A stretch of 32,000 nucleotides of DNA from an uncultured Pseudomonadota bacterium. Lineage in GTDB: Bacteria; Pseudomonadota; Alphaproteobacteria; Acetobacterales; Acetobacteraceae. The notes beneath the pieces are model-generated. The model searched no databases, was not told where the DNA came from, and saw only the letters and a program-made list of their open reading frames with translations. Both the position numbers and the translations under genes were made by a program. Where the stretch lies: assembly GCA_963840545.1 (NCBI GenBank), contig CAWIZE010000002.1:1631573-1663572 (forward strand), in the 5' to 3' direction. Shown piece after piece: positions 2,766 through 18,330 of this stretch (position 1 is its first letter; the number at the start of each line of letters is the position of its first letter).

Positions 2766-2982
2766 GCGGGCGGTCCGCCCAGGGTCTCGGGGTTCCGCGC
2801 GGGCCGATCGTCGCGCCCGGGGCGCGGGTCGGGGAAAATGCCTATCGCGTGAGATGCCGGTTCGATATGGCTTCCGGTGGCCGCCCTGCCGCCTAGCGAA
2901 GCTGGGCCGCCGCGCGAACACGTGATTTCATCTTGAAAGCGCGCGCCTTGTAAGCTGAACGAACGCAGCCGGGATAGCCTTC

Positions 2983-5055: not shown

Positions 5056-5905
5056 CCCGGGCGGGCTCGGCCAGCGCCTGCTCCCCCGCCGGGTCGCGGA
5101 GCGGATAGAGCAACTGCCCGACGAGCGAGGCGGGGAGCCGGGTATCGGTGCCGTAGGCGGCGGGCCATTCCGTGGGCAGATGATAGGTGCCGAAGATCCG
5201 GTCCATCCAGGGCAGCATCGAGGCGAAATTGCGGTCCCGGAACTGCGAACGGGTGTGATGCCAATGATGGAAGCCCGGCGTCGTGATCAGCCATTCCAGC
5301 GGGCCGAGGCGCCAGCGCACGTTGGCATGGATGAAGAAGCCCCAGACCGGGACCGCCAGCATGACGAGCGTGACGATCAGCGTGCCGCGCACGCTCTGCG
5401 GAGCGCCCAGGCCGAGGACGTAGATCGGGACCAGGCCGCACAGGCGGATGAACGCACTGTCGATCGGATGGGCGCGCGCGCTGATCAGGAAATAGACATC
5501 CTCCGGGCCGTGGTGCAGCGCATGGAAGCGCCACAGGAAGGGGATTTTGTGCGCCCAGCGATGGCCCCAATAGAAGCCAAGATCGCCGACGACGAACGCG
5601 CCAAGGGCGCGCAGCCATATCGGCCAGGCGGCGATCGCGGCATGCAGGCGCCACGGCACGAAGCGGTACGCGACGTAGGCCGCGATGGAGAGCGGAACCG
5701 CGAGCAGCAGTTGCGGCACAAGCCCCGTGATGAAGAAGAAACCGAGATCGCCGAGGACGGACTTGCGGATGACCTTCCGCTCATGGAGCGCGAAGAGATG
5801 CTCCAGCGGCAGGAAGATGACGGAGAGGATCAGCAGCCAGACGCAAAGCCTGAGCACGCTCAGGAGGATCGCGGCCAGGTGCTGGTGGTGGATGAATGCA
5901 AGCAA
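5042..5905 (-). CDS. fatty acid hydroxylase / sterol desaturase family membrane protein
   Basis: Histidine boxes HRWAH, HALHH and HHWHH in a polytopic hydrophobic protein. TTG start at 5905, so the start is uncertain. Its 3' end overlaps the convergent TPR gene by 14 bp. Confidence 0.8.
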   Translation of the reverse strand: MLAFIHHQHLAAILLSVLRLCVWLLILSVIFLPLEHLFALHERKVIRKSVLGDLGFFFITGLVPQLLLAVPLSIAAYVAYRFVPWRLHAAIAAWPIWLRALGAFVVGDLGFYWGHRWAHKIPFLWRFHALHHGPEDVYFLISARAHPIDSAFIRLCGLVPIYVLGLGAPQSVRGTLIVTLVMLAVPVWGFFIHANVRWRLGPLEWLITTPGFHHWHHTRSQFRDRNFASMLPWMDRIFGTYHLPTEWPAAYGTDTRLPASLVGQLLYPLRDPAGEQALAEPARVNRS

Positions 5906-5976
5906 GGGACTGTCCTGGTTGGGTCGCCCGCTTCCCGCGCCGGAGCCTCATCCGGGCGCCTCGGCTTGCTTGCCGA

Positions 5977-6831
5977 TCAGAGCGATGCGGACGTATTTTT
6001 GCGGCGGCGGCGGGCGAATGCCCCCATGCCCAGAAGGCCGATGCCGAGCAGCGTCAGGCTTGCCGGCTCCGGCACCGGCGCCCCCAGGCCGGGCGGGGAG
6101 TTGACGCCGCCGAGGAACGCGATCGGCGGAAGATTGACGGTGCTGCCGTCGTCGCCGTAGGCGAGGAAGCTCAGCAGGTCGGTGGTGGAGTCCGCGGTCA
6201 GGGTCAGGGTGACATACTGCCAACCGACGGTGCATGTGTAACAGACCGTCATCAGCGACGATTTCACGATGGAGGCGTTCGGGTCCGCATCGGAATAGGT
6301 CTCTGTCGGGCCGTATAGCGGGTTCGTCGGGCCGCCGCCGTTGAGAGTGAGGCCCGCCGTGCCCAGCGAGACGATCCACTGATCGGTGGTCGGCGTGTAG
6401 GCGCCGACATAGTTGTTGTAGCCAAATCCCGTCTGCTCGCTGGCGCCCTGGTAGAAGCTCAGCGTGTATTGCTGGCCAGGCGTCAGCCCTGTCACCAGGT
6501 AATTGAAGCCGCTTTCGTAGCTCGGGTTCCCGTCCGCTTCCACGTAGTTGCCGCTATAGGCTCCGACGGGATTGCCGTAGGTCTGGAGGTAGGTGGAGCT
6601 GTCGGCCTGCGCACCCGGCAGGGTTGTCGAATCGATGAAGATGAGGCCCGATCCCCCGGTCCAGCCCACCGGATCGACAGACGTGAAGCTGCCTTTCGGC
6701 GCGCTCCCCGTATAGCTGGAGAAGTTCAGGTTCGTGAGATTGGGAAGGGCCGGATCCGCCTGGGCAGCCTGGGCCGCGAGCGAGAGGCTGAGGGCAGTGG
6801 AGGCGATATAGAACGACCGGCGGAACACCAT
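5977..6831 (-). CDS. PEP-CTERM sorting-domain secreted protein
   Basis: N-terminal signal peptide (ALSLSLAAQAAQA). C-terminal VPEPASLTLLGIGLLGMGAFARRRRK is the PEP motif, a TM helix and an Arg cluster. The ATG at 6831 is preceded by GAGAAGG (6847-6841). The track's GTG at 6849 overlaps that RBS. Confidence 0.85.
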   Translation of the reverse strand: MVFRRSFYIASTALSLSLAAQAAQADPALPNLTNLNFSSYTGSAPKGSFTSVDPVGWTGGSGLIFIDSTTLPGAQADSSTYLQTYGNPVGAYSGNYVEADGNPSYESGFNYLVTGLTPGQQYTLSFYQGASEQTGFGYNNYVGAYTPTTDQWIVSLGTAGLTLNGGGPTNPLYGPTETYSDADPNASIVKSSLMTVCYTCTVGWQYVTLTLTADSTTDLLSFLAYGDDGSTVNLPPIAFLGGVNSPPGLGAPVPEPASLTLLGIGLLGMGAFARRRRKNTSASL

Positions 6832-6877
6832 GGCGCTCGACCTTCTCACAGTTGCGTGGTTGCCTGTGGCAGCTCAC

Positions 6878-6892
6878 GCAAATGGCGTGCCA
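6878..6892 (-). promoter_or_regulatory. candidate sigma-54 (-24/-12) promoter for the PEP-CTERM gene
   Basis: Minus strand reads cTGGCACgccatTTGCg, i.e. TGGCAC-N5-TTGC, which matches the RpoN consensus spacing. It lies about 47 nt upstream of the ATG at 6831. Confidence 0.6.
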
Positions 6893-7271
6893 GAGGGGGA
6901 AAGAGTTTCTTTTCAAGATGTTGGCCTTCGTCCGGAGATGGCCTGGCTGCGGATGTGTAAGATTCCTCGAACAGATCCGGGCGAAGGCCGGTCAGGCAGG
7001 CCGACATTGGACGCAGGCTGACATTGGAGGTCTGGTCCCGATCGGGATTGCGCCGAGGCCCGCGACGACCGGGCGGCCAACAGCTTTATCCAACGATCGA
7101 TCGGGCGAGCGATGGGGCTTGGCCCGGCTGCGACACGGGAAGCGGGATGGATGAGCGCGAGCGAGCCCGTCCGGCTCCGCGAGGAGAGCCGTGTTGCGCG
7201 GCTGAAGCGGGGGAGGGATGATGGCGCGAAGCGGCGCGGATCGTTGCCGATCGCAGCGGGAAGGGGGGATC

Positions 7272-8030
7272 ATGGCCTATGAAGGGATGATCGCGGAGAC
7301 CAACGCGATCGACGGCGATAGGAACGAGCCGATCTCGGCTTACGTTGCGCGGCCGCTGGGGCCGGGGCCGTTTCCCGGGATCGTGCTCTTTCACCACGCG
7401 CCCGGCTGGGACGAGTGGTACCGCGAGACGACGCGCAAATTCGCCCATCACGGGTACGCGGCGATCAGCCACAACCTCTATCACCGCGCGGGCGAGGGTA
7501 AAGCCGACGATGTGGCGGCCAAGGTGCGGGCCGAGGGCGGCGTTTCCGATGCGCAGGTGATCGGCGACGGCGAAGGCGCGGTGGCGTGGCTCCGCGCGCA
7601 GCCCTGGCTCAACGGCAAGGTCGGCGTGTTCGGCACCTGCTCGGGCGGTCGGCATGCGTTTCTGTTCGCGTGCCGCACGAAAGGCATCGACGCCTGTTGC
7701 GAGCTCTGGGGCGGGCGGGTGGTGATGAGCCGGGAGGAGCTGACGCCGAAGCAGCCGGTGGCGCCGATAGAATTCACGAAGGATCTCTGCTGCCCGCTGC
7801 TCGGCCTGTTCGGCAACGAGGACCGCGCGCCGACGCCGGAGCAGGTGGACCAGCACGAGGCCGAGCTGAAGAGATGCGGGAAGCAATACGAATTTCATAG
7901 ATATGACGGCGCCGGGCACGGGTTTTTCTATTACGACCGGCCGATGTACCGGGTCGCGCAGGCGCTGGACGGCTGGCAGAAGGTATTTTCGTTTTTGCAC
8001 CGGCATCTGCACAAGCCCGCGGCGGCGTGA
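7272..8030 (+). CDS. dienelactone hydrolase family protein
   Basis: ATG at 7272 after GGAAGGGGGG. PGIVLFHHAPGWDEW...VGVFGTCSGGRHAF...YDGAGHGFF matches the DLH-family alpha/beta-hydrolase layout. Confidence 0.85.
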   Translation: MAYEGMIAETNAIDGDRNEPISAYVARPLGPGPFPGIVLFHHAPGWDEWYRETTRKFAHHGYAAISHNLYHRAGEGKADDVAAKVRAEGGVSDAQVIGDGEGAVAWLRAQPWLNGKVGVFGTCSGGRHAFLFACRTKGIDACCELWGGRVVMSREELTPKQPVAPIEFTKDLCCPLLGLFGNEDRAPTPEQVDQHEAELKRCGKQYEFHRYDGAGHGFFYYDRPMYRVAQALDGWQKVFSFLHRHLHKPAAA

Positions 8031-8037
8031 CGCGGGC

Positions 8038-8379
8038 ATGTGCACCTCGATCGTCGAGATCGTAAGCGCGGAGGGCGCGGGGAAGGGCGGGGACGGGTGG
8101 TTCGGGCTGACGCACGCGGTGGTGTCCTACGACCATCCGCACCACGCGCTGCTGGAGGAGGCGATCACCATCGATTTCGTGAATGCGGCGCTGGGGCCGG
8201 GGGCGCGGGCGGCGGTGGAGCTGACGCTGGAGGCGGCGAAGGCGCTGAGCGGGGCGCTGGCGCGGGCGATCGCGGCGGCGGAGCGCGAGGAGGGTGCGCG
8301 AGCGGGGCCGCAACACGAAAATCATCGGCCTCAGCGTCGATCCGATCGCCCGGCACGCGAGCTGGGCCAAGGACATTGA
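8038..8379 (+). CDS. small DUF6295-like protein; its 3' end appears to run on into the alternate frame of a truncated peroxiredoxin
   Basis: MCTSIVEIVSAEGAGKGGDGWFGLTHAVVSYDHPHHALLEEAITIDFVNAALGPGARAAVELTLEAAKAL... matches my recollection of the DUF6295 pattern (MCT...GWF...DHP.H...DFVN...GPGARVAVEL). The last 25 or so codons (RAGPQHENHRPQRR...) look like non-native read-through. Confidence 0.5.
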   Translation: MCTSIVEIVSAEGAGKGGDGWFGLTHAVVSYDHPHHALLEEAITIDFVNAALGPGARAAVELTLEAAKALSGALARAIAAAEREEGARAGPQHENHRPQRRSDRPARELGQGH

Positions 8380-8788
8380 AGAGACGCAGGGGCACGCAGT
8401 CACCTACCCGATGATCGGCGACACCGAATTGAAGGTGGCTAAGCTCTACGACATGCTGCCGGAAGGCGCCGGCGGCACGGCGGAGGGCCGAACCGCCGCG
8501 AACAACGCGACCGTGCGTTCGGTGTTCGTGATCGGCTCCGACAAGAAGATCAAGGCGACGCTCAGCTATCCCATGAGCAGCGGGCGCAATTTCGACGAGG
8601 TGCTGCGACTGCTCGATTCCTGCCAGCTCACCGCGAGACATTCGGTCGCGACGCCGGTGAACTGGAAGATGGGCGAGGGCGTCATCATTCCGCCCGCCGT
8701 CTCGGACGAGCAGGCGAAGCAGAAATTCCCCAATGGCTGGAAAACCGTGAAACCCTATCTGCGCGTGGTCGCCCAGCCGCCCGGCTGA
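8294..8788 (+). pseudogene. 5'-truncated 1-Cys (Prx6-like) peroxiredoxin; lacks the N-terminal segment of about 55 aa that carries the peroxidatic Cys
   Basis: NTKIIGLSVDPIARHASWAKDIEETQGHAVTYPMIGDTELKVAKLYDML...NFDEVLRLLDSCQLT...ATPVNWKMGEGVIIPP is the middle and C-terminus of a Prx6-type enzyme. No FTPVCTTE segment exists upstream in any frame; the upstream DNA encodes the DUF6295-like ORF instead. Confidence 0.75.
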
Positions 8789-8877
8789 ACGCTTCGCGCG
8801 CGAACTCCGGCGCGACGGAGGAGGCGCAGCACCATCCGAGCGGGTTACGGCAAGCGGAGCCGGCGACCTGCCGCTTG

Positions 8878-9165
8878 TCAGTCGCGGGAAGAGGACAGTC
8901 CCGCGAGAAGCGGCACGTACGCGGCGCGCCTGCGGGATACGAACTCCGTGAAGAGCCGAACGCGCCTCGTCTTGCGCGTCTCGCCCTGCGTGAGGAGCCA
9001 GAGCGTTCCGTGCATGCGCAGGGCGGTGCCCGGCACCCTCACCAGCAGCGGGTCTGGATCTCCGACGAAGCAAGGCAGCGTCGTCATCCCGAGCCCCTGC
9101 CGCACCGCGACGATCTGCGCCCCGGCGGCCGTGGTCCTGAACGGAACCTCAGCGGTGGGAACCTC
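8878..9165 (-). pseudogene. LysR-family regulator, C-terminal fragment only
   Basis: The tail of ORF 8878..9582 reads ...FRTTAAGAQIVAVRQGLGMTTLPCFVGDPDPLLVRVPGT...LWLLTQGETRKTRRVRLFTEFV, typical of a LysR substrate-binding-domain C-terminus. No HTH or N-terminal half is present. The boundary with the transketolase part is approximate. Confidence 0.6.
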
Positions 9166-9864
9166 ACGTCGCGCGCCGGCGATTTCTTCCTCGCCCGGCG
9201 CATCGCCATGGGCCTTCTGGGTGCCGGCCTTGGTCGGGAAGCCGAAGCCGATGATGGTCTTGCAGGCGATCATGGAGGGCTGGTCGGTCACCGCGCGGGC
9301 GGCGGCGACGGCGTCGCGGATCGCGTCCGTGTCGTGGCCGTCGATCTCCTGCACATGCCAGCCGGAGGCGCGGAAGCGCTCGAGCTCGTGGTCCGAAACC
9401 GCGAGGCTGGTCGGGCCGTCGATGGAGATGGAATGGTTGTCCCAGAAGGCGATGAGGCGGCCGAGCTTGAAGTGGCCCGCCAGGGAAATCGCTTCCTGGC
9501 TGATGCCTTCCATGAGGCAGCCATCGCCCATGAAGACGTAGGTGAAATGTTTGCAGAGATCGTCCCCGAACCTGGCGTTCACGATGCGCTCGGCAAGCGT
9601 GAAGCCGACCGAGTTCGCGATGCCCTGGCCGAGCGGGTCGGCGGTCGTCTCGATGCCGTCGGCATGCCCCTATTCCGGATGGCCGGCGGTCCTGCTGTCG
9701 ATCTGGCGGAACCGCTCCAGCTCGTCCTGGGTCATGTCCTTGACGCCGGTCGGGTAGAGCAGGCTGTAGAGCAGCATCGAGCCGTGGCCGTTCGACAGCA
9801 GGAAGCGGTCGCGGTCGAACCAATGCGGCCCGGCCGCATCGAGGGCCGGGCCGCGGCGGGCCGG
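9166..9864 (-). pseudogene. transketolase internal fragment (roughly residues 45-300) with an in-frame TAG
   Basis: Minus strand reads ...[136 protein letters not shown]...IGFGFPTKAGTQKAHG. The stop (TAG, plus-strand cta at 9670-9672) replaces the conserved Tyr of GHPEYG. The N-terminus and the C-terminal half are absent. Confidence 0.8.
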
Positions 9865-10332
9865 TCAGGATCGGTCGATCCGGCCGGAGTAGCAGCCCCG
9901 CCTGGCATTGTGGGCGTGGATGTAGCTCACGTCGGGGTTGGCGAAGAACCGGGCGATCAGCGGCTCGATGGCCGCGCCCTCGGTGACGTCCGCATCGAGC
10001 ATCATGCCGTCCGCGTCAAAGGCGCGGAGCGAGAGCAGCCGGACGCGCATGACCTCCGGCACCTGGTCGAGCTGGTCGAAGGTTTTCGTGGCGCCCTCGC
10101 GGACGAAGATGGCGTGCGCGGCGCGATAGGGCGTGGCCGCCGGCTGGCAGGTGTGGTTGAGCAGAATCAGCGTCTCGCCCGGCTCGGCATCGCGCATCTC
10201 GATCCGGCAGGGGAAGCCCGGCTTCGCGTCGGCGATGTAGCGTTTCGCGGTGTGCGCGGCGAGCTCGGCATCGGACAATCCGAACAGGTGCCGGAACGGC
10301 TCGGGCGAGAGCCCGGTGATACGAAAGGTCAA
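9865..10332 (-). CDS. DUF1203 domain-containing protein
   Basis: TTG at 10332 preceded by AAGGAGGG. (M)TFRITGLSPEPFRHLFGLSDAELAAHTAKRYIADAKPGFPCRIEMRDAEPGETLILLNH... matches the DUF1203 family pattern. Confidence 0.75.
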   Translation of the reverse strand: MTFRITGLSPEPFRHLFGLSDAELAAHTAKRYIADAKPGFPCRIEMRDAEPGETLILLNHTCQPAATPYRAAHAIFVREGATKTFDQLDQVPEVMRVRLLSLRAFDADGMMLDADVTEGAAIEPLIARFFANPDVSYIHAHNARRGCYSGRIDRS

Positions 10333-10474
10333 AGGTCCCTCCTTGGTTTGGGGGCGACACCTGAGCAGGACCGCGGCGCGCCCGCCATCCGTTTGTTGCT
10401 GCCGAATTCGGCCGGGGCGCGCGGCGTGCGCCTCCATACCTGCGGCGGGAGGGCGCCGCAGGGACGGGGTCGGT

Positions 10475-11396
10475 TCAGGCGCGGTTGTCGTATTTGCTGT
10501 GGCCTGCGAAATAGCTCGGCCGGTCGAGATCGGGAATGAGGCCGGGCTGTGTCGGGCGCCATCCCAGCCGTTCCTGCGTTTGCGCGCTCGAAGCCGGGCA
10601 GTCGATGCTCACGAAGAACCCGAGAAAGCCGAAATGCCCGGCCGCCTCCGCGGCGGACTTGCCGACGACCGGCAGGTTCAGGCGGCGGCCGATGACGCCG
10701 GCGATGTCGCGGAACGGAACGCCCTCGTCGGCGACCCCGTGATAGCGGGCTCCCGCGGACCCCTTCTCGAGCGCCAGCCTGTAGAGATGGGCAGCATCGA
10801 GCCGGTGGACCGCGGGCCAGCGGTTGAGCCCGTCGCCCACATATGCCGAGACGCCCTTTTCACGCGCGATGCCGATGAGGCGCGGAACGAAGCCGTGATC
10901 GCCGTCACCATGGACGGACGGCGCGAGGCGCAGCAACGACGCGCGGACCCCGCGTGCGGCCAGCGCGGCGGTTGCCACTTCCGAAGCGACGCGGGGAAGC
11001 GCATGGGAGTCGGAACCTAGGCACGATGTCTTCGATGGCGAGGCGGCCTGGCGTAAGGAGGGCGGTCCCGGAGGTGACGATCAAGGGACGGTCGGAGCCT
11101 TCGAGGACGGCGCCGAGCGTCTCGATGGCGCGCCGGTCCATCTCGCAGTTTTCCGCGAACTTCGAAAAATCGTGGTTGAAGGCCGTGTGGATCACGCCAT
11201 CCGACATGGCGGCCCCGCCGCGCAGGCTCTCGAGATCTTCGAGATCGCCGCGATGCGCCGCCGCGCCACCGGCGATGAGAGACTGGGCGCCCGCATCCGA
11301 GCGAGCGAGACCGAGGACCCGATGGCCCGCATTGACGAGCTCCTGAACAATGGCAGAACCGATAAAGCCTGTCGCACCGGTGACGAAGACACGCAT
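10475..11396 (-). pseudogene. NAD(P)-dependent SDR/epimerase-family oxidoreductase, split by a frameshift
   Basis: The N-terminal half ([33 protein letters not shown]...) sits in ORF 10905..11480. The C-terminal half ([46 protein letters not shown]...) sits in ORF 10475..10978 in another frame. The two frames meet around 10980-11025. Confidence 0.7.
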
Positions 11397-11523
11397 CGCG
11401 ACTGATCCCTTGCGCCGTTCGATGGCCGCATGTGCGGCCCTGTGATTGTCGAGATAGGTGATTGAGGGAATACGATCCATGCTGTAAAGTCCGTATTATC
11501 GTCGCAATCGTCCGGGATGGCCC

Positions 11524-12498
11524 ATGGACCCGCTCTCAGATGTGCTGTCGCTGCTGAGACCGCGCAGCTATATGTCCGGTGGCTTCGATGCGGGTGGAGA
11601 ATGGTCGATCCGGTTCCCCCGGCATGAAGGAATCAAATGCTACGCTGTGGTTTCCGGGCGGTGCTGGCTCTCCGTCGAGGGCGTTCCCGACGCGGTGGGC
11701 CTGAAGACCGGGGATTGCTTCCTGCTGCCGAGGGGGCGGCCTTTCCGGCTTGCCAGCGACATGGCTTTGCCGCCGGTCGACGCAAGCAGGCTGTTTTCGC
11801 CGGCGCGGAATGGCGGCATCGCCGCGTGCAACGGCGGGGGCGATTTCTTTCTTGCAGGCGGGCACTTCGCCCTTGCCGGCAATCATGCCGGCATCCTGTT
11901 GGGGGTGCTGCCGCCGATCGTGCATATCCGCAAAGAATCGGACAAGGCGGCGCTGCGGTGGTCCCTGGAGCGGATGATGCGGGAGCTGCGCGAGCGGCAG
12001 CCCGGCGGCTTTCTGGTCGCGGAGCACCTTGCCCACATGATGCTGGTTCTGGCGCTGCGACTGCATCTGGCGGCAGGGTCGAGGGGTGGCGTCGGGTGGC
12101 TCTTCGCCCTGGCGGATAGGCAGATGAGCGCGGCGATCGGCGCCATGCACGACGACCCGGCGCAAGGCTGGACATTGCAGGTGCTGGCGGAGCGTGTCGG
12201 GATGTCGCGATCGAGCTTCGCCCTGAAATTCAAGCAGACGGTTGGGACATCGCCCATGGAATACCTGACGCGCTGGCGTATGCTGCTGGCCGGGGACAGG
12301 CTGGCGAATTCCGGCGATCCCGTCTCCGTCATTGCCCGCTCGCTCGGCTACTGCTCGGAGAGCGCCTTCAGCACGGCCTTCAAGAGGGTCATGGGCTGTT
12401 CGCCGCGGGACTATCGCCGTGGCCGGGCCGCGGCTTCTCCTTCGCCTGGCGAGGGGGAAGCCGCCCGCGCCGATCGGCTCGATCCTGTCGCGGGTTGA
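11524..12498 (+). CDS. AraC-family transcriptional regulator with N-terminal cupin-type sensor domain
   Basis: MDPLSDVLSLLRPRSYMSGGFDAGGEWSIRF... is the AraC-type cupin N-terminus. The C-terminus carries two HTH units (WTLQVLAERVGMSRSSFALKFKQTVGTSPMEYLTRWRM...IARSLGYCSESAFSTAFKRVMGCSPRDY). Confidence 0.9.
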   Translation: MDPLSDVLSLLRPRSYMSGGFDAGGEWSIRFPRHEGIKCYAVVSGRCWLSVEGVPDAVGLKTGDCFLLPRGRPFRLASDMALPPVDASRLFSPARNGGIAACNGGGDFFLAGGHFALAGNHAGILLGVLPPIVHIRKESDKAALRWSLERMMRELRERQPGGFLVAEHLAHMMLVLALRLHLAAGSRGGVGWLFALADRQMSAAIGAMHDDPAQGWTLQVLAERVGMSRSSFALKFKQTVGTSPMEYLTRWRMLLAGDRLANSGDPVSVIARSLGYCSESAFSTAFKRVMGCSPRDYRRGRAAASPSPGEGEAARADRLDPVAG

Positions 12499-12552
12499 TC
12501 TGCGCGGTTGGCGGCTGCCCGGAGCGACGGGATGGGGAACGGCTTCTTTTTG

Positions 12553-12611
12553 TTGTGCCGCGCAGCGCCCAAGGGTCCAAGTATGGGGGGGTCCAGGGGC
12601 CCAGCCCCTGG
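12553..12611. repeat. REP-like GC-rich element, copy A (ttgtgccgcgcagcgc ... gggggggtccaggggcccagcccctgg), ending in an 8-bp-stem hairpin
   Basis: Hairpin ccaggggc-cca-gcccctgg at 12593-12611, 3 nt beyond the stop of the 12615..14585 gene. Both modules recur in reverse complement at 19057-19102. Confidence 0.75.
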
Positions 12612-12614
12612 CGG

Positions 12615-14585
12615 TTAGCCGGGTTCCGGGGTTTTCGTGCGGAAGAGCAGGGACCAGCCCTGGACGTCCTGGAGCATGGCGAGCGCGAGGCCGTGGAGGG
12701 TCGCGCCGAGGGCGGATGAGGCGAGGGGGCGGGAGGTGTCGATCGCCTCGAGCTCCTGCGTCGTCTCCGCGAGCACGCGCAGCATCTGTTGGGACTGAAG
12801 GTGGAGGGGGTCGAACTCGGCATAGGCGCGCAGGCTGACGAAGCCGGCCGAGAGCGCGGCGAGCGTCGTGCAGGCGAAGCCGAGCCAGCGCTCCGCGCCG
12901 GCGCCTTCGGCGGCGTGGAGCCCGCCGTGGAACAGGGCGTGGGCCATGAAGAAAAGCTTGACGAACACGAGCACCAGGGTCGCGGCGAAAGCAAGCTCGC
13001 CAAGGCCGATGAGCCGGCGCGCGGCGACGCGGCTGCGGCGCGCGCGGTCCTGGTGATAGCTGGTCTGCGCGGCGATCGTCTCCGCGCCGATCGCGCGGGC
13101 GCGCGGGACGTGCCCGGCGATCGTGCCGTGCGGCAGCTCCGCCCCGCGCATCGCCGCGCTGACATACCAGGCGACCCAGGCGTCGCGCGGCGGGCCGTGG
13201 GGCTGCGTCTCCGGATGGCGGGCGAGGTCGGCCACCTGGGCGAGCGGCAGCGACCAGCCGAGCCGGGCGAGCATGCGCTGCTTGCGGCACAGCTCGGCGA
13301 GCAGCCGGTAGGCGATCCATCGTTCGTGCCAGCGGCCGAACTCGCTGGCGACGACGATGCAGAAGATGGAGACCAGGGCTGCGAACTCGACGATGGTGGC
13401 AGGCAGGCCGAAGGCCAGGGGCGCGGCCAGCGCCAGGCCCATCGCCGAGACGGTGAGGGCGGCGAGCGCGATGATCAGCACGTAGGAGGAGCGGTAGCGG
13501 TCGGCGTATTTCCGCCCGTGGCGGTCCGCTTCTTCGTGCATCGCGGCCCAGGCGCGCTCGACCGCGTCGGCGGGTTCGGGTGGCTGCTCGGGCGGTGCAG
13601 GCGGCGCAGGCGGGGCGGGCGGGGCGGCGTGGGCCGGCGCGATGCGGTCGAGCGCGCGGGAATAGACGCGCCAGAGGCGCGGCCGCACGCTCTCCTCGCC
13701 TTCCGCGAAATAGTCGGAGAGCGGGTCGCGGCGATGGCCGAGCCGCGCGGCGATCCAGTGCACGGCGGCGCCGACCCAGGTGTGGTGGTGGGGCCCGCCG
13801 GGTGCCGGCGGCGCGATCGTGGCGCGGAGCAGCGCGGCGAGTGCCGCCTCCGCCGCCCGGCCGGCCGGGGCGGAGGCGCGGTGCGCGAGGGACGTCGGGC
13901 CGAGCAGCAGGCGCGGCGGCTGGGCGGCGGCGGGATCGATCCACCACACCGGGACATGGCTGCGCACCGCGTAATGGACGGTCTCCCCGGTGCCGCCGGG
14001 CTTGCCGTGGGCGCCATCCCAGACCGCGATCAGGAGGTCCGCGTTGCGGACGACGAAGCGGCCGACGGCGCGAAAGGACGCCTCCGCGTCCTCGTCGCGC
14101 GCGCCGTCGAGGGCGAGCACCGCGGGGGCGTCGGATTCGGTGCGCGCGGCGGCGAGCAGGGCGCGGAACGGCGCGGGATCTCTGTCGAAGGTTTTTTCGT
14201 AGTCCGCGGCAGGGAAAGGCAGCGGCGCTTCGAGCCGGAGGCCGGCGGCGAGCGCGGCCTCGGCGGCGATGCGGTCGGAGCCCTCGGCGAGCGGGGAGAA
14301 GAGGCGGATGAGCGGCGGGTCGGGCGCGTAGGCCGCCCGGACGGAAGGTTCGGCGGCGAGTGCCGCGATCGTCGTGCGCGCGCGCTGCATGACGGCGGCG
14401 AGCGCATCGGCAAGGGCGGGGAGCGCCGCGGGATCGAGCTTGTTGGGCCGCGCGCCGGTGACCCCGAGGCGGAAGGCGAGCCGGGGCCGGAGGGGGCCGA
14501 GGAAAGGGGGGCCAAGGAAAGGGGGGCCAAGGGAAGGGGGCCCGAGGGAAGGCGGCCCAAGGGAGGATGGTGGCGGAGGCGTCAC
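12615..14585 (-). CDS. SLOG-like (YpsA/DprA/LOG-type Rossmannoid) N-terminal domain fused to two SLATT/DUF4231-like 2TM modules
   Basis: GTG start overlaps the upstream stop (GTGA). N-terminal domain: LGVTGARPNKL...SPLAEGSDRIAAEAALAAG...ADLLIAVWDGAHGKPGGTGETVHYAV. First membrane module: YADRYRSSYVLIIALAALTVSAMGLALAAP...ATIVEFAALVSIFCIVVASEFGRWHERWIAYRLLAE. Second module: QTSYHQDRARRSRVAARRLIGLGELAFAATLVLVFV...WLGFACTTLAALSAGFVSLRAYAEF. Domain names come from motif recognition only. Confidence 0.65.
   Translation of the reverse strand: MTPPPPSSLGPPSLGPPSLGPPFLGPPFLGPLRPRLAFRLGVTGARPNKLDPAALPALADALAAVMQRARTTIAALAAEPSVRAAYAPDPPLIRLFSPLAEGSDRIAAEAALAAGLRLEAPLPFPAADYEKTFDRDPAPFRALLAAARTESDAPAVLALDGARDEDAEASFRAVGRFVVRNADLLIAVWDGAHGKPGGTGETVHYAVRSHVPVWWIDPAAAQPPRLLLGPTSLAHRASAPAGRAAEAALAALLRATIAPPAPGGPHHHTWVGAAVHWIAARLGHRRDPLSDYFAEGEESVRPRLWRVYSRALDRIAPAHAAPPAPPAPPAPPEQPPEPADAVERAWAAMHEEADRHGRKYADRYRSSYVLIIALAALTVSAMGLALAAPLAFGLPATIVEFAALVSIFCIVVASEFGRWHERWIAYRLLAELCRKQRMLARLGWSLPLAQVADLARHPETQPHGPPRDAWVAWYVSAAMRGAELPHGTIAGHVPRARAIGAETIAAQTSYHQDRARRSRVAARRLIGLGELAFAATLVLVFVKLFFMAHALFHGGLHAAEGAGAERWLGFACTTLAALSAGFVSLRAYAEFDPLHLQSQQMLRVLAETTQELEAIDTSRPLASSALGATLHGLALAMLQDVQGWSLLFRTKTPEPG
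14492..14566. repeat. 15-bp in-frame tandem repeat, 5 units, encoding (S/F)LGPP x5 at the N-terminus of the SLOG-SLATT protein
   Basis: Units 14492-14506, 14507-14521, 14522-14536, 14537-14551 and 14552-14566 (gggggccRaggRaag and variants). No alternative start codon lies downstream of the repeat, so it must be translated. Confidence 0.9.
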
Positions 14586-16591
14586 GCGGGCGCCTCATTC
14601 AGCCAGGCCTCGACCGCCCAGGCTTCGACCGCAGCAGCGGCGCGGGGGAATTGCTCGGCGATATGCTGGAGATCGCGCGGCGCGGCGCGCGCGAGGCCGC
14701 GGGCGTGGATGGCGAGCGCGGCGGTCGCGGCCAGCGCCTCCGCCGCCCGCCAGGCGGGCTCGTCGGCGATGTCGATCTCGATCAGCGCGATCTCCTCGGG
14801 AGCGATGGGCGTGGCGGGTGGATGGGCGGGATCCATGCACACGAGGCGGCGGACGGCGCGGCCGGCCTCGCCGGCGATGCGGGGGATTTTCGCGACCGCG
14901 CCGAGATTGTAGGCGCGCGCGGGCGGGGGCAGCGCCTCCCAGTCCACGAGCTGAGGATGCGTCTTTGCGGCCTCGTCGCGCACCGGGCCGTGACGCCATC
15001 CCGCGGCGATGAGGTCGAGGCGCCAGCGATGGTGCTCGGCGCGCGCCATCCGCTCGATCTCGGCCTCCCGCAGGGTGGCGCTGGGCCCAGGGCCGGCGGC
15101 GAGGCGGAGGCCGGCGTGGCCGAGCTTGACCGGAATATGGTCGGCGAAGGCGCGGTTGGCGCGGCGGAAGCGCTCGGCGAGCTGCTCCCAGGGCACGGCG
15201 GCGGGCGCGTCCCGATCCGGGTTCGAGGCCAGGAAATCCTCGTGCACCGCGCGGGCCATGCGGTCCGCCTCGGCCTCGAAGAGCTGCGCCGGCCCGACCA
15301 GGGAGGCGAGGTCGCCGAACCCGCCGAGCCGCTCGGGGCAGAGCGGGCGCGCCGCCATCCGCCCGAGGAGCTCGCTGAGGCCGCGCTCCTGGCGGGTGCG
15401 GACATGGATCGGGGTTGCGAAGCGGCGCTGGCGATCGAGCGCGTCGCGGAGGCCGAAGGCGGCCTCGAGCGCGGCATCGTCGCGGCCGAGCGCGACGATC
15501 ACCGCGGCGGGCGGGCGGGCGGCGAGGTCGGCCTCGATCGCCTGCCACTCGGTGGTCCGGCCCCATTCGTCCGGCGGGCCGAACCAGGCCGGGCGGATCT
15601 CGAGATCGAGGCATTGGCGGAGATGCCGCCCCCAGGGCGACGCGGCGAGCACGGCGGCGCGCGCCTCGGCGTCGCGGTCATAGGCGAGGATGTCGACGCG
15701 CGTGTCCGGCAGCGCGAAGGTCGAGAGGGCGGCGTGGCGGAGGATCGCGACGCCGAGATCGCCGAGGCCGGCGAGGACGATGCGCGGGCGGGCGCCGGCG
15801 GTGCGGACGAAGCCCGCCCCGCCGAGCAGCCGGCGCGCCGAGACCTCCTCGGTGCGGAGCGGATGGACGAGCAGGCCGGGGTCGAAGATTCCCGTGGGCG
15901 GCACCGCCATCGCGTCGATCAGCCAGGGGGCGCGGATCTCGGGGCGCGCGAGGAGGGGCGCCGCGCCGCCGGCGGCCGCGGTTCGCCGGGCGGTGCGCGC
16001 GCCGGCGGCCATCACGATGTCGAGGTTGGTGGCGTCCGAGCCGGTCGTCGCGACCAGCGCGCGCGCCCGGGTGATCCCGGCATGCTCGAGCGTCTCGGTG
16101 CGGGTCGCGTCCCCGCTCAGCACCGGCACGCCGAGGCGATCGCAGAGCGCGATCGCCGCGGCCGCATCCTCGCGCGTGATCGCGACGGCCTTGAGCCCGG
16201 CGCGCTTGAGGCCGCGGACGACCTCGATCCCGGTTTCGCCGAGGCCGCAGACCACCACGTGCCCGCGCATGGCCTGGGCGCGCGCGAGCTGCGCGTCGTG
16301 GCGGAGGTTGTGCACGAAGAGCGAGATGCTGCCCATCAGCCCGGCCAGCACCAGGACCACGAACATCAGGGACTGCGCCGCCACGAGCAGGAACGGAGCA
16401 TGGCCGAAGGGGAAGGATTGCTCGCCGCGGACGAGGAAAATCGTGTCGATCAGCGCGGGCTCGAGCCCCTGTCCGCAATAGGGGTGGCCGTGGCAGGTCA
16501 TGAAGCCGACCAGGCCGAGCGCGGTTGCGAGCAGGGCGAGCAGGGCGACCGGCGCCCATTGCCCGAGCCGGTAGATGCGGAGGCTCAGCAC
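14582..16591 (-). CDS. membrane protein: 2 TM helices + two Rossmann (TrkA-N/RCK-like) domains + RyR domain
   Basis: GxGxxG motifs: HVVVCGLGETGIEVVRGLKRAGLKAVAITRED and RIVLAGLGDLGVAILRHA...DILAYDRD. RyR-domain signature: IERMARAEHHRWRLDLIAAGWRHGPVRDEAAKTHPQLVDWEALPPPARAYNLGAVAKIP. The preferred start is the GTG at 16591, 17 nt after the upstream stop. The track's ATG at 16741 would overlap the upstream gene by 133 nt. Confidence 0.7.
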   Translation of the reverse strand: MLSLRIYRLGQWAPVALLALLATALGLVGFMTCHGHPYCGQGLEPALIDTIFLVRGEQSFPFGHAPFLLVAAQSLMFVVLVLAGLMGSISLFVHNLRHDAQLARAQAMRGHVVVCGLGETGIEVVRGLKRAGLKAVAITREDAAAAIALCDRLGVPVLSGDATRTETLEHAGITRARALVATTGSDATNLDIVMAAGARTARRTAAAGGAAPLLARPEIRAPWLIDAMAVPPTGIFDPGLLVHPLRTEEVSARRLLGGAGFVRTAGARPRIVLAGLGDLGVAILRHAALSTFALPDTRVDILAYDRDAEARAAVLAASPWGRHLRQCLDLEIRPAWFGPPDEWGRTTEWQAIEADLAARPPAAVIVALGRDDAALEAAFGLRDALDRQRRFATPIHVRTRQERGLSELLGRMAARPLCPERLGGFGDLASLVGPAQLFEAEADRMARAVHEDFLASNPDRDAPAAVPWEQLAERFRRANRAFADHIPVKLGHAGLRLAAGPGPSATLREAEIERMARAEHHRWRLDLIAAGWRHGPVRDEAAKTHPQLVDWEALPPPARAYNLGAVAKIPRIAGEAGRAVRRLVCMDPAHPPATPIAPEEIALIEIDIADEPAWRAAEALAATAALAIHARGLARAAPRDLQHIAEQFPRAAAAVEAWAVEAWLNEAPA

Positions 16592-16608: not shown

Positions 16609-18000
16609 CTATGGCCCGAGGATCGAGATCACGCTCGGGGCCGGCAAGGTTTTCGCCGAGGTGTTGAGTGCGAGAAGCTGGAGCACGATCTCCATCACCT
16701 CGGACGAGCGGTCGGCGCCGGAAGGATCGATCGAGATGCAATAGCGCGTGCCGTCATAGGCGACGCCGATCTCGCCCGCGATGCCGGTGCAGTCCTCCCG
16801 CACCAGGAACAGCCGGTCGGTTCCGAGCCCGGTGCCGATCTGCGGCGGCGCGAGCCTCTGGCTGACGCCGATATCGAGCTCGCCGCGCGCCAGCTCGCCG
16901 AGATAATAGATGATGCCCTCGACCGAGCGGACGGTGAAATTGACCTGCAACGTCACGGTCCGGGTCGTGCCGTCGGCAGTGCGGACCAGGGCGGGAAAAC
17001 AATTCGCCGGCTCGGCATAGGCGTGGCGCTCGGTGGCCTTCATCCGGAGATAGGGCGACGCGCCGCAGCGCTCGGCGGCGGCCTCCACGGCGCCGGCGGA
17101 GGCGCCAAGCGGCGGGCCGATGATCGTATCGCCGGGCGGCAGCACGCCGAGCGCGATGAGCGTCCGGCTCGCCGCCGGCAGGGCCTGGAGATCGGGATCG
17201 ATGCAGAACCGGCTCTCCCGGGTCGTCTGCTGGAGGCGGAAATATTCCGTCACGCCGCGGCGGGCGAGCTCGGCCTTCTCGCTCGCCGTGAGATCGGGGT
17301 CGGAGGTCGTGGTGAAGCGCTTGAGCGCGGCGCCCTCGGCCAGTGGCGCCAGCGCGCGCAGGCTCGCGATATCCGCCGCGGGAATCGGCGGGCCGACATT
17401 GGTGATGGTCTTGACCACCTCGGAGCTGAGGCCAAGATCGGCGAGCGCGCCGACCACCTGCTCGAAATTGCTGTAATGGTCGCCGAAATAGTTATTGTAG
17501 AAGGCCAGCGGCGTATCGTCGTTCAAGGCGATGTCGATGCGGCCGATCACCAGGGTGAGCAGCAACGCCTTCGGGAAGCCCTGCTCGAGGTAATAGTCGA
17601 TGCTGGTGATCGGGATCGGAGAGAGGATGCCCTGGTAGAATTCCTGCGTGTCGAGATTGGCGACGCTGAAGGCCTGGGTGCCGCTGAGCGTGGCCGCCGG
17701 GCTTGCCGTGTCGGCGTGGGGGAAGGTGGCCGGGCTCGGGCTGAAGGGCAAACTGAAGGCGGCGGTACCGGAGAGCGAGGTCTGGCCCGTGACCTGCGTG
17801 AAATCGGTGAACTGCAGCGGCTCGCGATAGGCGGCGCGCATCACGTTGAGCATCAGCACGCTCTCCTTGATGTCCTCCGCCTGCTGGTTGTAGGCGATCG
17901 CGCGCGGAGCGAAGTAGTCGACGACCTCGCAGCCGGTGAGCGCGAGCAGCGCAGGCAGCAGAAGCAGGGCGATTGGCCCCCATCGCCTTCTCTTCCCCAT
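16609..18000 (-). CDS. lipoprotein of unknown function (no family recognised)
   Basis: MGKRRRWGPIALLLLPALLALTGC is a basic n-region, a hydrophobic core and an L-T-G-C lipobox. The mature part has 5 further Cys residues and no TM segment. It is the first gene of the three-gene operon. Confidence 0.75.
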   Translation of the reverse strand: MGKRRRWGPIALLLLPALLALTGCEVVDYFAPRAIAYNQQAEDIKESVLMLNVMRAAYREPLQFTDFTQVTGQTSLSGTAAFSLPFSPSPATFPHADTASPAATLSGTQAFSVANLDTQEFYQGILSPIPITSIDYYLEQGFPKALLLTLVIGRIDIALNDDTPLAFYNNYFGDHYSNFEQVVGALADLGLSSEVVKTITNVGPPIPAADIASLRALAPLAEGAALKRFTTTSDPDLTASEKAELARRGVTEYFRLQQTTRESRFCIDPDLQALPAASRTLIALGVLPPGDTIIGPPLGASAGAVEAAAERCGASPYLRMKATERHAYAEPANCFPALVRTADGTTRTVTLQVNFTVRSVEGIIYYLGELARGELDIGVSQRLAPPQIGTGLGTDRLFLVREDCTGIAGEIGVAYDGTRYCISIDPSGADRSSEVMEIVLQLLALNTSAKTLPAPSVISILGP

Positions 18001-18330
18001 CGCCCCCTCGTTTCATTGCCGCCCGGGATTCACGCGGGGCTGCAATCGTATCGAGCGTGGCATGGCCTTCTCCGCGCTGGCAAGGCCGGCGCAGGCGGGC
18101 CGGGCCGCCCTCGCGCAGGCGTGAGAGAAGCATGGGCGTCGGGCGGCCGCGGACAATCATTCGCCGACAACCAAGGGTTGCCGGCGCGGCGTCGCGGCCC
18201 CCTCTTGCGCCCCGCTCCGATCAGGTAAAGAAGGCGGGGTCGCGCAATTCGGCGACACCGGGAGCGGCCTCATGCTCGACCACGGCCACCGCGCGCGGCA
18301 AGACGATGCCCGCCCGCCCGCGACCTCGCC

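Follow-up and report, generated by a model that had tools for sequence, protein, structure and literature searches.

A SLOG-fold domain joined to two tandem SLATT-type membrane modules in an uncultured Acetobacteraceae bacterium: a putative Thoeris-like effector in an operon with an RCK/RyR-domain protein

The described systems closest to the locus reported here are Thoeris systems, in which a signal made by a TIR-domain protein switches an effector. According to the available text of a 2025 survey preprint (bioRxiv 10.64898/2025.12.03.692087), type I Thoeris has the SIR2-SLOG effector ThsA, whose SLOG domain binds 3′ cyclic ADP-ribose (3′cADPR); the type II effector joins a Macro sensor to transmembrane (TM) helices that make a pore lethal to the cell; type VII pairs a TIR protein with a SLATT effector, ThsH, which is activated by canonical cADPR; and type X pairs a TIR protein with an ion channel. 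Here, we examined a 32-kb stretch of DNA from an uncultured alphaproteobacterium of the Acetobacteraceae (the whole stretch is hereafter called the window), and in particular the minus-strand gene at 12615–14585 (hereafter the target), which encodes a SLOG-fold domain followed by two tandem SLATT-type modules. We infer, with moderate confidence, that the target functions as a Thoeris-like membrane effector gated by an NAD-derived signal.

The target resembles these effectors in part and departs from each of them. In the Pfam descriptions, SLATT denotes a "SMODS and SLOG-associating 2TM effector," and Aravind and co-workers predicted SLATT proteins to be permeability effectors regulated by ADP-ribose (ADPr) derivatives, with SLOG domains as sensors or processors (PMC9503650, PMC7159879). 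Like the target, ThsH is a SLATT-type 2-TM effector; it is paired with a TIR protein and arrests growth in response to TIR-made cyclic ADP-ribose. However, the survey text annotates only SLATT in ThsH, mentions no separate sensor, and predicts that the ligand lies between SLATT protomers, whereas the target has a SLOG-fold domain, a connector, and two SLATT modules and lacks an adjacent TIR gene; by these descriptions the two proteins are set apart. ThsA offers the parallel of a SLOG receptor for a TIR-made signal that switches a fused killing module, but its output is a soluble SIR2 NADase and that of the target would be membrane modules. Moreover, the top 50 Foldseek matches of the target did not include ThsA, and the N-terminal domain (N-domain) of the target has no significant Pfam SLOG match. 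The type II effector is likewise a single chain that joins a cytoplasmic sensor of an ADPR derivative to TM helices, although this sensor is a Macro domain binding His-ADPR and the TM part carries no SLATT annotation. Among eukaryotic proteins, the N-terminal SLOG-fold domain of TRPM2 binds ADP-ribose and thereby gates the pore formed by the same chain, which is that of a six-TM TRP channel; TRPM2 entries stood low in the Foldseek list of the target, at a non-significant probability of 0.04–0.05. A TIR gene at the locus, by which a Thoeris system is recognized, is lacking in the window and was found only in relatives.

Many spurious open reading frames (ORFs) occur in DNA of ~70% GC. The target, listed as an ORF of 656 aa with a GTG start, was counted as a real gene because its GC content is 0.91 at third codon positions (GC3) and 0.57 at second codon positions (GC2), which is typical of real genes in such DNA. 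Database searches yielded 176 homologues, almost all full length (600–660 aa). A first-pass annotation of this DNA, made from the letters alone, had quoted a series of motifs, and all of them were found at their places in the translation: GVTGAR at residue 41, SPLAEGSD at 97, ADLLIAVWDG at 182, GGTGET at 197, APPAPPAPPAPPEQPPEP at 321, YADRYRSSY at 360, WHERWIAYRLLAE at 419, and SYHQDRARRSR at 509. Conservation was read over 43 relatives of 37–75% identity, across which the residues of the motifs vary little or not at all. An AlphaFold2 (AF2) model of the target, built from a 43-sequence alignment, had a mean predicted local distance difference test score (pLDDT) of 91.1 and a predicted TM-score (pTM) of 0.89.

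In this model, the N-domain has strands at residues 37–44, 92–96, 117–122, 184–188, and 213–216 with helices between them, and strands 1, 2, and 4 end in the loops GVTGxR, SPLAEGxDR, and WDG...GGT(A/G)(E/D), respectively. The first three quoted motifs lie at the C-terminal ends of strands 37–44, 92–96, and 184–188, and the residues invariant among the 43 relatives (R39, G41, G44, P98–G102, D104, D183, W189, G191, G197, and G198) fall in the loops that follow these strands. When the whole target model was searched against the PDB with Foldseek, the best matches were all SLOG-superfamily proteins, with probabilities of 0.98–1.00: ShosA (8zva, E 6.8e-3), DprA from three species (3uqz, 5mll, and 4ljk), the Chlamydomonas molybdenum cofactor (Moco) carrier protein (2iz6/2iz7, TM-score 0.52–0.56), and the LOG-like protein TM1055 (1rcu, TM-score 0.51). 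The predicted N-terminal Rossmann fold was thus recovered, since the domain was modeled as Rossmann-type and its best structural matches were SLOG proteins rather than an unrelated enzyme family. The narrower assignment to a YpsA/DprA/LOG-type (SLOG) domain agreed with the fold and the motif layout and lacked a significant sequence-family match. Among 37 N-domains of relatives, YpsA and YAcAr each matched one member weakly (E 0.18–0.35), and the matches in multi-domain relatives (YpsA, E 0.0036; DprA as DNA_processg_A, 0.083) were all under cut-off. A sequence route to a named SLOG family was also tried and given up, as the N-domain profile failed to bridge to one among the best 150 of its 10,190 cluster representatives. 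Because no SLOG profile matched significantly, SLOG is used here as a fold-and-motif assignment and not as sequence-family membership; by its modeled fold and its motif layout, the N-domain belongs to the SLOG superfamily.

As to the role of this domain, G102 and D104 of the target fit the GxD/E signature that is predicted to bind substrate in the YpsA clade (PMC6459960). It could be argued that the N-domain is itself an enzyme and not a passive sensor, either an N-glycosidase of the LOG kind or a SLOG enzyme producing or degrading a signal of the ADPr type. Such an activity would account for the absence of a separate nearby enzyme; TM1055 is LOG-like, Nuc_deoxyrib_tr and YpsA match weakly in relatives, and nucleotide processing has been predicted for some SLOG domains by Aravind and co-workers (PMC9503650; PMC6459960). 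Nevertheless, we regard an enzymatic N-domain as very unlikely, for no Pfam match to LOG (Lysine_decarbox) was obtained, and the frequent pairing with TIR genes described below suggests that the signal is made by another protein. The LOG motif reads PGGxGTxxE, and the GGT(A/G)(E/D) loop of the target resembles it in sequence, but the acidic residue stands two residues past the Thr in this loop and three in LOG. Even less probable is that the N-domain senses nucleic acid like DprA or ShosA, which would couple the detection of foreign single-stranded DNA to membrane damage: ShosA (8zva) and DprA (3uqz, 5mll, and 4ljk) were indeed the top Foldseek matches, but their E-values are weak (6.8e-3 and above), the Moco carrier and the LOG-like protein, SLOG proteins that bind small molecules, matched with higher TM-scores, DNA_processg_A matched nowhere except at 0.083 in one multi-domain relative, and the links to TIR and RyR domains point to ADPR-type ligands.

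The N-domain leads into a conserved helical connector, modeled as helices at 242–257, 270–281, 288–293, and 303–315 with pLDDT of 88–97 and carrying the conserved residues P259, P260, P288, E295, and W305. The Pro/Ala-rich linker that follows differs among homologues in both sequence and length, with gapped and variable alignment columns. Beyond it, hydropathy and the AF2 model agree on four hydrophobic helices (TM1–TM4 in Table 1), and the C-terminal helices are membrane-spanning by both, as the first-pass annotation had supposed. Each TM pair has a long cytoplasmic helix before it and one after it. Lys and Arg together number 6–7 in three of the four cytoplasmic flanks, 1 after TM4, and 0 in both short outer loops, in keeping with the positive-inside rule. 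Because the outer loops are short and uncharged and the cytoplasmic flanks are rich in Arg and Lys, all soluble parts of the target are predicted to face the cytoplasm.

Module 1 is modeled as helices 341–387 and 390–417 followed by an amphipathic helix, 419–440. It scored 24.5 bits against Pfam DUF4231 (cut-off 24.7, E 3.9e-5) and 28.5 against NCBIfam SLATT_1 (cut-off 41, E 1.2e-6), and relatives rose above the Pfam DUF4231 cut-off with 31.0, 28.1, and 25.5 bits. The inter-module segment contains the invariant residues W473 and R480. Module 2 is modeled as helices 489–552 and 563–589 followed by cytoplasmic helices 591–614 and 622–649. Module 2 of the target itself matched no SLATT-family profile; in the relatives, SLATT_1 matched it in 14 of 37 at E≤0.1 (best 2.9e-4), DUF4231 in 2 of 37, SLATT_fungal in one, and every other listed family in one member, and the best score in a relative was sub-threshold (24.0 bits against a cut-off of 26.3). 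A 2-TM hairpin with flanking cytoplasmic helices is present in both modules according to the AF2 model, hydropathy, and charge. The two tandem SLATT/DUF4231-like 2TM modules proposed earlier are therefore upheld in layout; by profile, module 1 stays just under the DUF4231 cut-off in the target and passes it in some relatives, and module 2 has recurrent sub-threshold SLATT_1 matches only. A common origin of the modules by internal duplication found no support in a direct test: hhalign comparison of module 1 with module 2, based on 43- and then 119-sequence family alignments and run in local, low-mact, and global modes, gave a best probability of 0.5% (E 0.11). Because this profile-profile comparison was non-significant, two SLATT-type modules are supported, whereas their internal duplication is not directly supported. 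Taken as modeled, the target is supported as an inner-membrane protein with two tandem SLATT-type hairpins and four TM helices.

Duplication of the SLATT module in one chain had been called unusual in the first-pass annotation. Inside the lineage it is a constant feature: when one genome of each species was scanned, a relative covering target residues ~31–654 turned up in at least 524 species genomes. Because the double-SLATT layout is fixed across so large a family, it is no local oddity. The family occurs in Alphaproteobacteria, Acidobacteriota, Gemmatimonadota, Planctomycetota, Armatimonadota, Verrucomicrobiota, Bacillota, and Gammaproteobacteria, among other taxa, and RefSeq names its members "DUF4231 domain-containing protein" or "hypothetical protein." The N-domain profile retrieved 10,190 cluster representatives at E≤1e-3, 1,730 of them at E≤1e-30, and nearly all among the best 150 of the 10,190 share the architecture of the target. 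Among the divergent architectures noted (P0123, P0213, P0242, and P0224), some have three or four tandem N-domains ahead of DUF4231/SLATT, and one protein of 1187 aa has an AAA/nSTAND5-type NTPase and the N-domain at its C terminus.

To place the family in its genomic setting, we sampled 80 non-redundant loci, the window and 79 from other genomes, with ~16 kb of flanking DNA each, and neighbors were grouped by all-against-all clustering of their ORFs. The most frequent neighbor family was a TIR-containing cluster, found at 29 of the 80 loci, and the next was the RCK-RyR family (15 of 80). In a search by hidden Markov model (HMM), 35 of the 80 loci had a TIR ORF no more than 10 kb away; the distance was at most 3 kb in 27 loci and at most 500 bp in 17, and most of these ORFs were co-directional with the family gene. 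Pfam confirmed TIR_2 in ten neighbors, alone or fused to nSTAND1, CHASE2, FGE-sulfatase, alpha/beta-hydrolase, or PDZ domains, and the conserved TIR Glu is retained in at least 90% of 42 TIR domains. On the Caballeronia plasmid pSBC2-4, the RefSeq order is DUF4231 protein, TIR protein, and WD40 protein on one strand. The RCK-RyR gene was adjacent and co-directional in its 15 loci, down to relatives of 27% identity, and in three loci (L066, L071, and L083) the SLOG-SLATT, RCK-RyR, and TIR genes stand in a row. An independent sampling of metagenomes that started from RCK-RyR yielded 52 full-length loci, many on short contigs; 17 had SLOG-SLATT within 3 kb, 16 had TIR, 7 had both, and 26 had either. 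A fixed universal partner gene was rejected because neighborhoods vary: TIR and RCK-RyR recur, and neither is universal. The association of SLATT with SLOG and TIR components holds in the family, given the fused SLOG-fold domain and the TIR neighbors in 35 of 80 loci.

On these grounds, the following mechanism is proposed. The SLOG domain would bind a small NAD-derived nucleotide, for example a cyclic ADP-ribose isomer, made by a TIR protein; binding would be transmitted by the connector to both SLATT modules, which would rearrange or oligomerize; and the membrane would become leaky, leading to growth arrest or death in keeping with the abortive-infection logic of Thoeris. Across the family, the usual source of the signal would be a neighboring TIR-domain enzyme. 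Because the window contains no TIR gene in cis, we propose that in this genome the signal may be made elsewhere and act in trans, the target may respond to a metabolite, or it may be an orphan effector. The ligand-triggered membrane disruptor suggested in the first-pass annotation would fit these results.

The target is not a stand-alone gene. It is the last of a three-gene minus-strand operon, preceded by genes for a predicted lipoprotein and for an RCK/RyR-domain protein (hereafter the partner). Its GTG start overlaps the partner stop by 4 nt (GTGA), which indicates translational coupling, and the lipoprotein stop lies 17 nt ahead of the partner start. The longest partner ORF reaches 16741, and an identical database protein, P0252, starts at GTG 16591. 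The partner comprises a GsuK/MthK-like 2-TM region, two RCK/Rossmann domains, a RyR Repeat12-like domain (at about 14867–15274), and a C-terminal alpha/beta domain. Pfam detected TrkA_N (E 2.8e-16, 15998–16258) and RyR (E 3.8e-10); at the sequence level, the partner matched Repeat12 of RyR1 with an E-value of 1.2e-20, about half of the residues being identical over 52 positions, and RyDEP (PDB 35TM) with an E-value of 1.1e-4. Its AF2 model (pLDDT 80.9) matched GsuK in Foldseek with an E-value of 4.7e-11 over 446–545 columns that span the TM and tandem RCK parts, and its C-terminal part matched human RyR3 R12 with a TM-score of 0.5–0.6. The filter loop of the partner reads RGEQSFPFGHAP without TVGYG; because it differs from TVGYG, the partner is called channel-like and not a K+ channel.

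The RyR-like domain suggests a link of the partner to cADPR. Phage proteins with a RyR domain (PF02026) bind 2′/3′cADPR with nanomolar affinity or cleave it (PMC13232231, May 2026 preprint). One of them, RyDEP, contacts its ligand through H75, W78, H100, and D117 and has a fold homologous to animal RyR Repeat12 (PMC13232231). The RyR domain of the partner keeps the HxxW motif and a His 25 residues later, and, by spacing alone, the counterpart of the catalytic Asp117 of RyDEP would be an Asn, the alignment reaching RyDEP residues 73–109. RyDEP is a soluble phage protein, whereas the partner is host-encoded and membrane-bound. The partner probably acts as a further sensor/effector or modulates the response to the same signal. 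The predicted lipoprotein matched nothing in Pfam, NCBIfam, PADLOC, or the PDB; its homologues (52–69% identity) travel with the operon in the related loci L008 and L011, and L013 and L036 gave weak partial matches. Together, the lipoprotein, the RCK/RyR protein, and the SLOG/double-SLATT protein, joined in relatives by TIR, might form an undescribed membrane signaling system in which a TIR-made cADPR-type messenger acts on two membrane proteins, a SLOG-gated pore and a K+-channel-like protein gated by its RyR Repeat12 domain, without a cis TIR gene here. We offer this larger scheme only tentatively and at low confidence.

A number of observations weigh against a Thoeris-like role of the target. 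No TIR, SMODS, cyclase, or other signal-making gene was found in the 32 kb, and both a TIR HMM and tblastn with TIR/STAND queries were negative across the window. This bears out the earlier remark that no signal-generating enzyme lies nearby; the stand-alone picture implied by that remark fits less well, given that the target is operonic with the RCK/RyR gene and that TIR is the commonest neighbor in the family. By Pfam, most of the other predicted genes of the window were covered and matched housekeeping families only, and the flanks of the target form no defense island. PADLOC-DB v2 had no match for the target, the partner, or the lipoprotein; the viral and phage collections contained no relatives of the target, and only two relatives were plasmid-borne. 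In 45 of the 80 loci, no TIR lay within 10 kb, a count limited by contig ends. No Pfam or NCBIfam SLOG model matched the target, and no significant Pfam SLOG match was obtained in relatives (10 full-length proteins and 37 N-domains); against PDB sequences, neither phmmer with the target nor hmmsearch with the N-domain profile gave a real match. Furthermore, the ligand class of the N-domain is not fixed, because ShosA and DprA bind nucleic acid or act otherwise.

Much of this would suit a physiological, non-immune module, in which the target and its RCK/RyR partner adjust ion flux or membrane potential according to NAD(H), ADP-ribose, or related metabolites, for instance under redox or nutrient stress, with neither TIR nor phage involved. 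The window lacks a TIR or defense gene and has housekeeping neighbors, PADLOC and the viral and phage collections were silent, plasmids gave only the two matches, and the 45 loci lack a nearby TIR. In addition, the TrkA_N/RCK part of the partner is of an NAD-binding type, its closest structure, GsuK, has NAD- and ADP-bound entries, and the SLOG protein YpsA acts in oxidative stress and cell division (PMC6459960). We still hold a physiological module to be rather unlikely: TIR is the neighbor met most frequently, often in the same operon and often joined to STAND NTPase, WD40, FGE-sulfatase, or hydrolase domains, the spread over phyla is patchy as is typical of conflict systems, and the closest relatives have TIR and nSTAND1 beside the operon.

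Of the relatives on long contigs, the closest two are L008 (71% identity) and L011 (57%), which share the three-gene operon with the window. In both, a divergent pair of TIR and nSTAND1(-Sel1) genes adjoins the operon; the DNA available for L009, L010, and L017 (66–71%) contained no TIR. In L008, the 4.8-kb pair of TIR and nSTAND1-Sel1 genes (1491–6328) lies between the SDR and lipoprotein genes, where the window has ~300 bp. In tblastx, L008 767–1498 corresponded to window 19044–18313 and L008 6546–7907 to window 17970–16609, and nothing in the window matched L008 ~1500–6540. Because L008 and the more distant L011 both have the pair, its loss in the lineage of the window is the simpler reading, as judged from the gene content of three lineages.

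Such a loss raises the question of whether the operon is an orphan remnant, that is, whether the adjacent TIR/nSTAND1 pair was deleted and the surviving effector genes are silent or decaying and functionless here. The SDR and 3HCDH genes stand directly beside the lipoprotein gene, the 4.8-kb pair is cleanly absent by synteny with L008 whereas L008 (71%) and L011 (57%) retain it, and fragments (a partial transketolase, a partial AhpC, and a split epimerase) lie downstream of the target. However, the three operon ORFs are intact with GC3 of 0.89–0.91, the target retains every family-invariant residue, start/stop coupling is preserved, and the direction of change, loss or gain, is based on only three lineages. 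A functionless remnant is thus, in our judgment, quite unlikely, and we retain the Thoeris-like effector as the favored reading of the target.

Table 1. Features of the target, its operon, and the adjoining gap, in window coordinates (residues are those of the target; aa, amino acids)
Feature	Position	Strand	Basis
Target gene: SLOG-like domain, helical connector, Pro/Ala linker, two tandem SLATT-type 2-TM modules	12615..14585	-	ORF, GC3, homologues, AF2
15-bp tandem repeat, in frame, 4.7 copies	14492..14562	-	Tandem Repeats Finder (TRF) score 93
SLOG-fold (Rossmann-type) cytoplasmic domain, residues 31–235	13881..14495	-	AF2, Foldseek, conservation
Helical connector, conserved, residues 236–320	13626..13880	-	AF2, conservation
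Pro/Ala-rich linker, residues 321–338	13572..13625	-	Motif position, pLDDT ~74
SLATT module 1, residues 341–440	13266..13565	-	DUF4231/SLATT_1 matches, hydropathy, AF2
TM1, residues 366–388	13422–13490	-	Hydropathy, AF2
TM2, residues 393–417	13335–13409	-	Hydropathy, AF2
Cytoplasmic inter-module segment, residues 441–488	13122..13265	-	AF2 helices 448–455, 469–481
SLATT-like module 2, residues 489–656	12618..13121	-	AF2, hydropathy, SLATT_1 matches of relatives
TM3, residues 527–550	12936–13007	-	Hydropathy, AF2
TM4, residues 565–587	12825–12893	-	Hydropathy, AF2
RCK/RyR partner, 669 aa, GTG 16591	14582..16591	-	Pfam, AF2, Foldseek
Lipoprotein, predicted, 463 aa, lipobox LALTGC, operon gene 1	16609..18000	-	ORF, sequence
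Intergenic gap, operon to SDR gene	18001..18312	.	tblastx synteny with L008; gene calls in L004/L006

The positions of these features are collected in Table 1. The 15-bp repeat encodes PPSLG/PPFLG units in the N-terminal leader of the target (residues ~9–30), which is modeled as disordered (pLDDT <50 at residues 1–24), and it was found in none of 42 aligned homologues. Rfam, run on the whole window, and promoter and terminator scans of the operon region returned nothing informative. The Pfam scan covered most of the other predicted window genes, the three at 27.9–32.0 kb excepted, and the families found included chromate transporter, VTT/LssY, TPR-sulfotransferase, SDR, 3HCDH, BKACE, SMP-30, ABC transporter parts, and AraC regulator. 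Between the target and the VTT/LssY gene, ~9.8 kb (window ~2770–12600) has no counterpart in L008 and contains gene fragments: 8878–9669 (minus strand) joins Transketolase_N positions 103–276 of 334 to a LysR_substrate fragment, 8249–8788 (plus strand) covers AhpC positions 58–123 only, and an NAD-epimerase is split over two minus-strand ORFs, 10475–10978 and 10905–11480.

Elsewhere in the family, 93 family ORFs were counted in the 80 loci, and some loci seem to hold two nearby SLOG-SLATT copies; in L041, one copy adjoins a TIR-nSTAND1-FGE-sulfatase gene. In a Rhodoblastus-like genome (L001/L002, 1–17842), a relative of the target lies within a dense signaling/conflict island together with PP2C, a Ser/Thr kinase, FHA-trypsin, TIR_2, patatin, a calcineurin-like phosphoesterase, and a TPR-S/MAP3K_TRAF_bd protein.

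With regard to earlier work, a nucleotide sensor fused to a SLATT pore and paired with TIR follows a known logic and is not categorically new. No paper on the SLOG plus double-SLATT family was found in the literature covered, which does not include the 2015 paper of Burroughs et al. (NAR 43:10633) defining SLOG and SLATT, and the family is not mentioned in the available text of the 2025 Thoeris survey, whose supplementary files contain no RyR, TrkA, or DUF4231 terms (bioRxiv 10.64898/2025.12.03.692087). Likewise, the literature search returned no paper on a bacterial RCK-RyR protein linked to TIR. The target family is uncharacterized and its N-domain has no curated model, and tandem SLATT and the coupling to a RyR protein are undescribed in the literature covered.

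If the favored reading is right, a single-chain SLOG sensor with a double SLATT pore would represent a large, unstudied effector class present in hundreds of species of many phyla. The window is in addition a natural case of effector genes without the TIR/STAND sensor pair that the closest relatives retain. Most of the promise of the finding lies in the RyR-domain neighbor and its link to TIR signaling. The partner is a host-encoded, membrane-embedded, channel-like protein with a RyR Repeat12 domain, and its gene is associated with those of TIR enzymes and with the target. Whether cADPR-type molecules act directly on animal RyR domains is an old open question, and binding by phage RyR domains was shown only in 2026. 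The compact operons of SLOG-SLATT, RCK-RyR, and TIR genes in relatives would provide a tractable bacterial system in which to test the cADPR-RyR idea, and the proposed two-protein scheme, if true, would be a prokaryotic example, and possibly an ancestor, of the debated "cADPR acts on the RyR" axis in animals.

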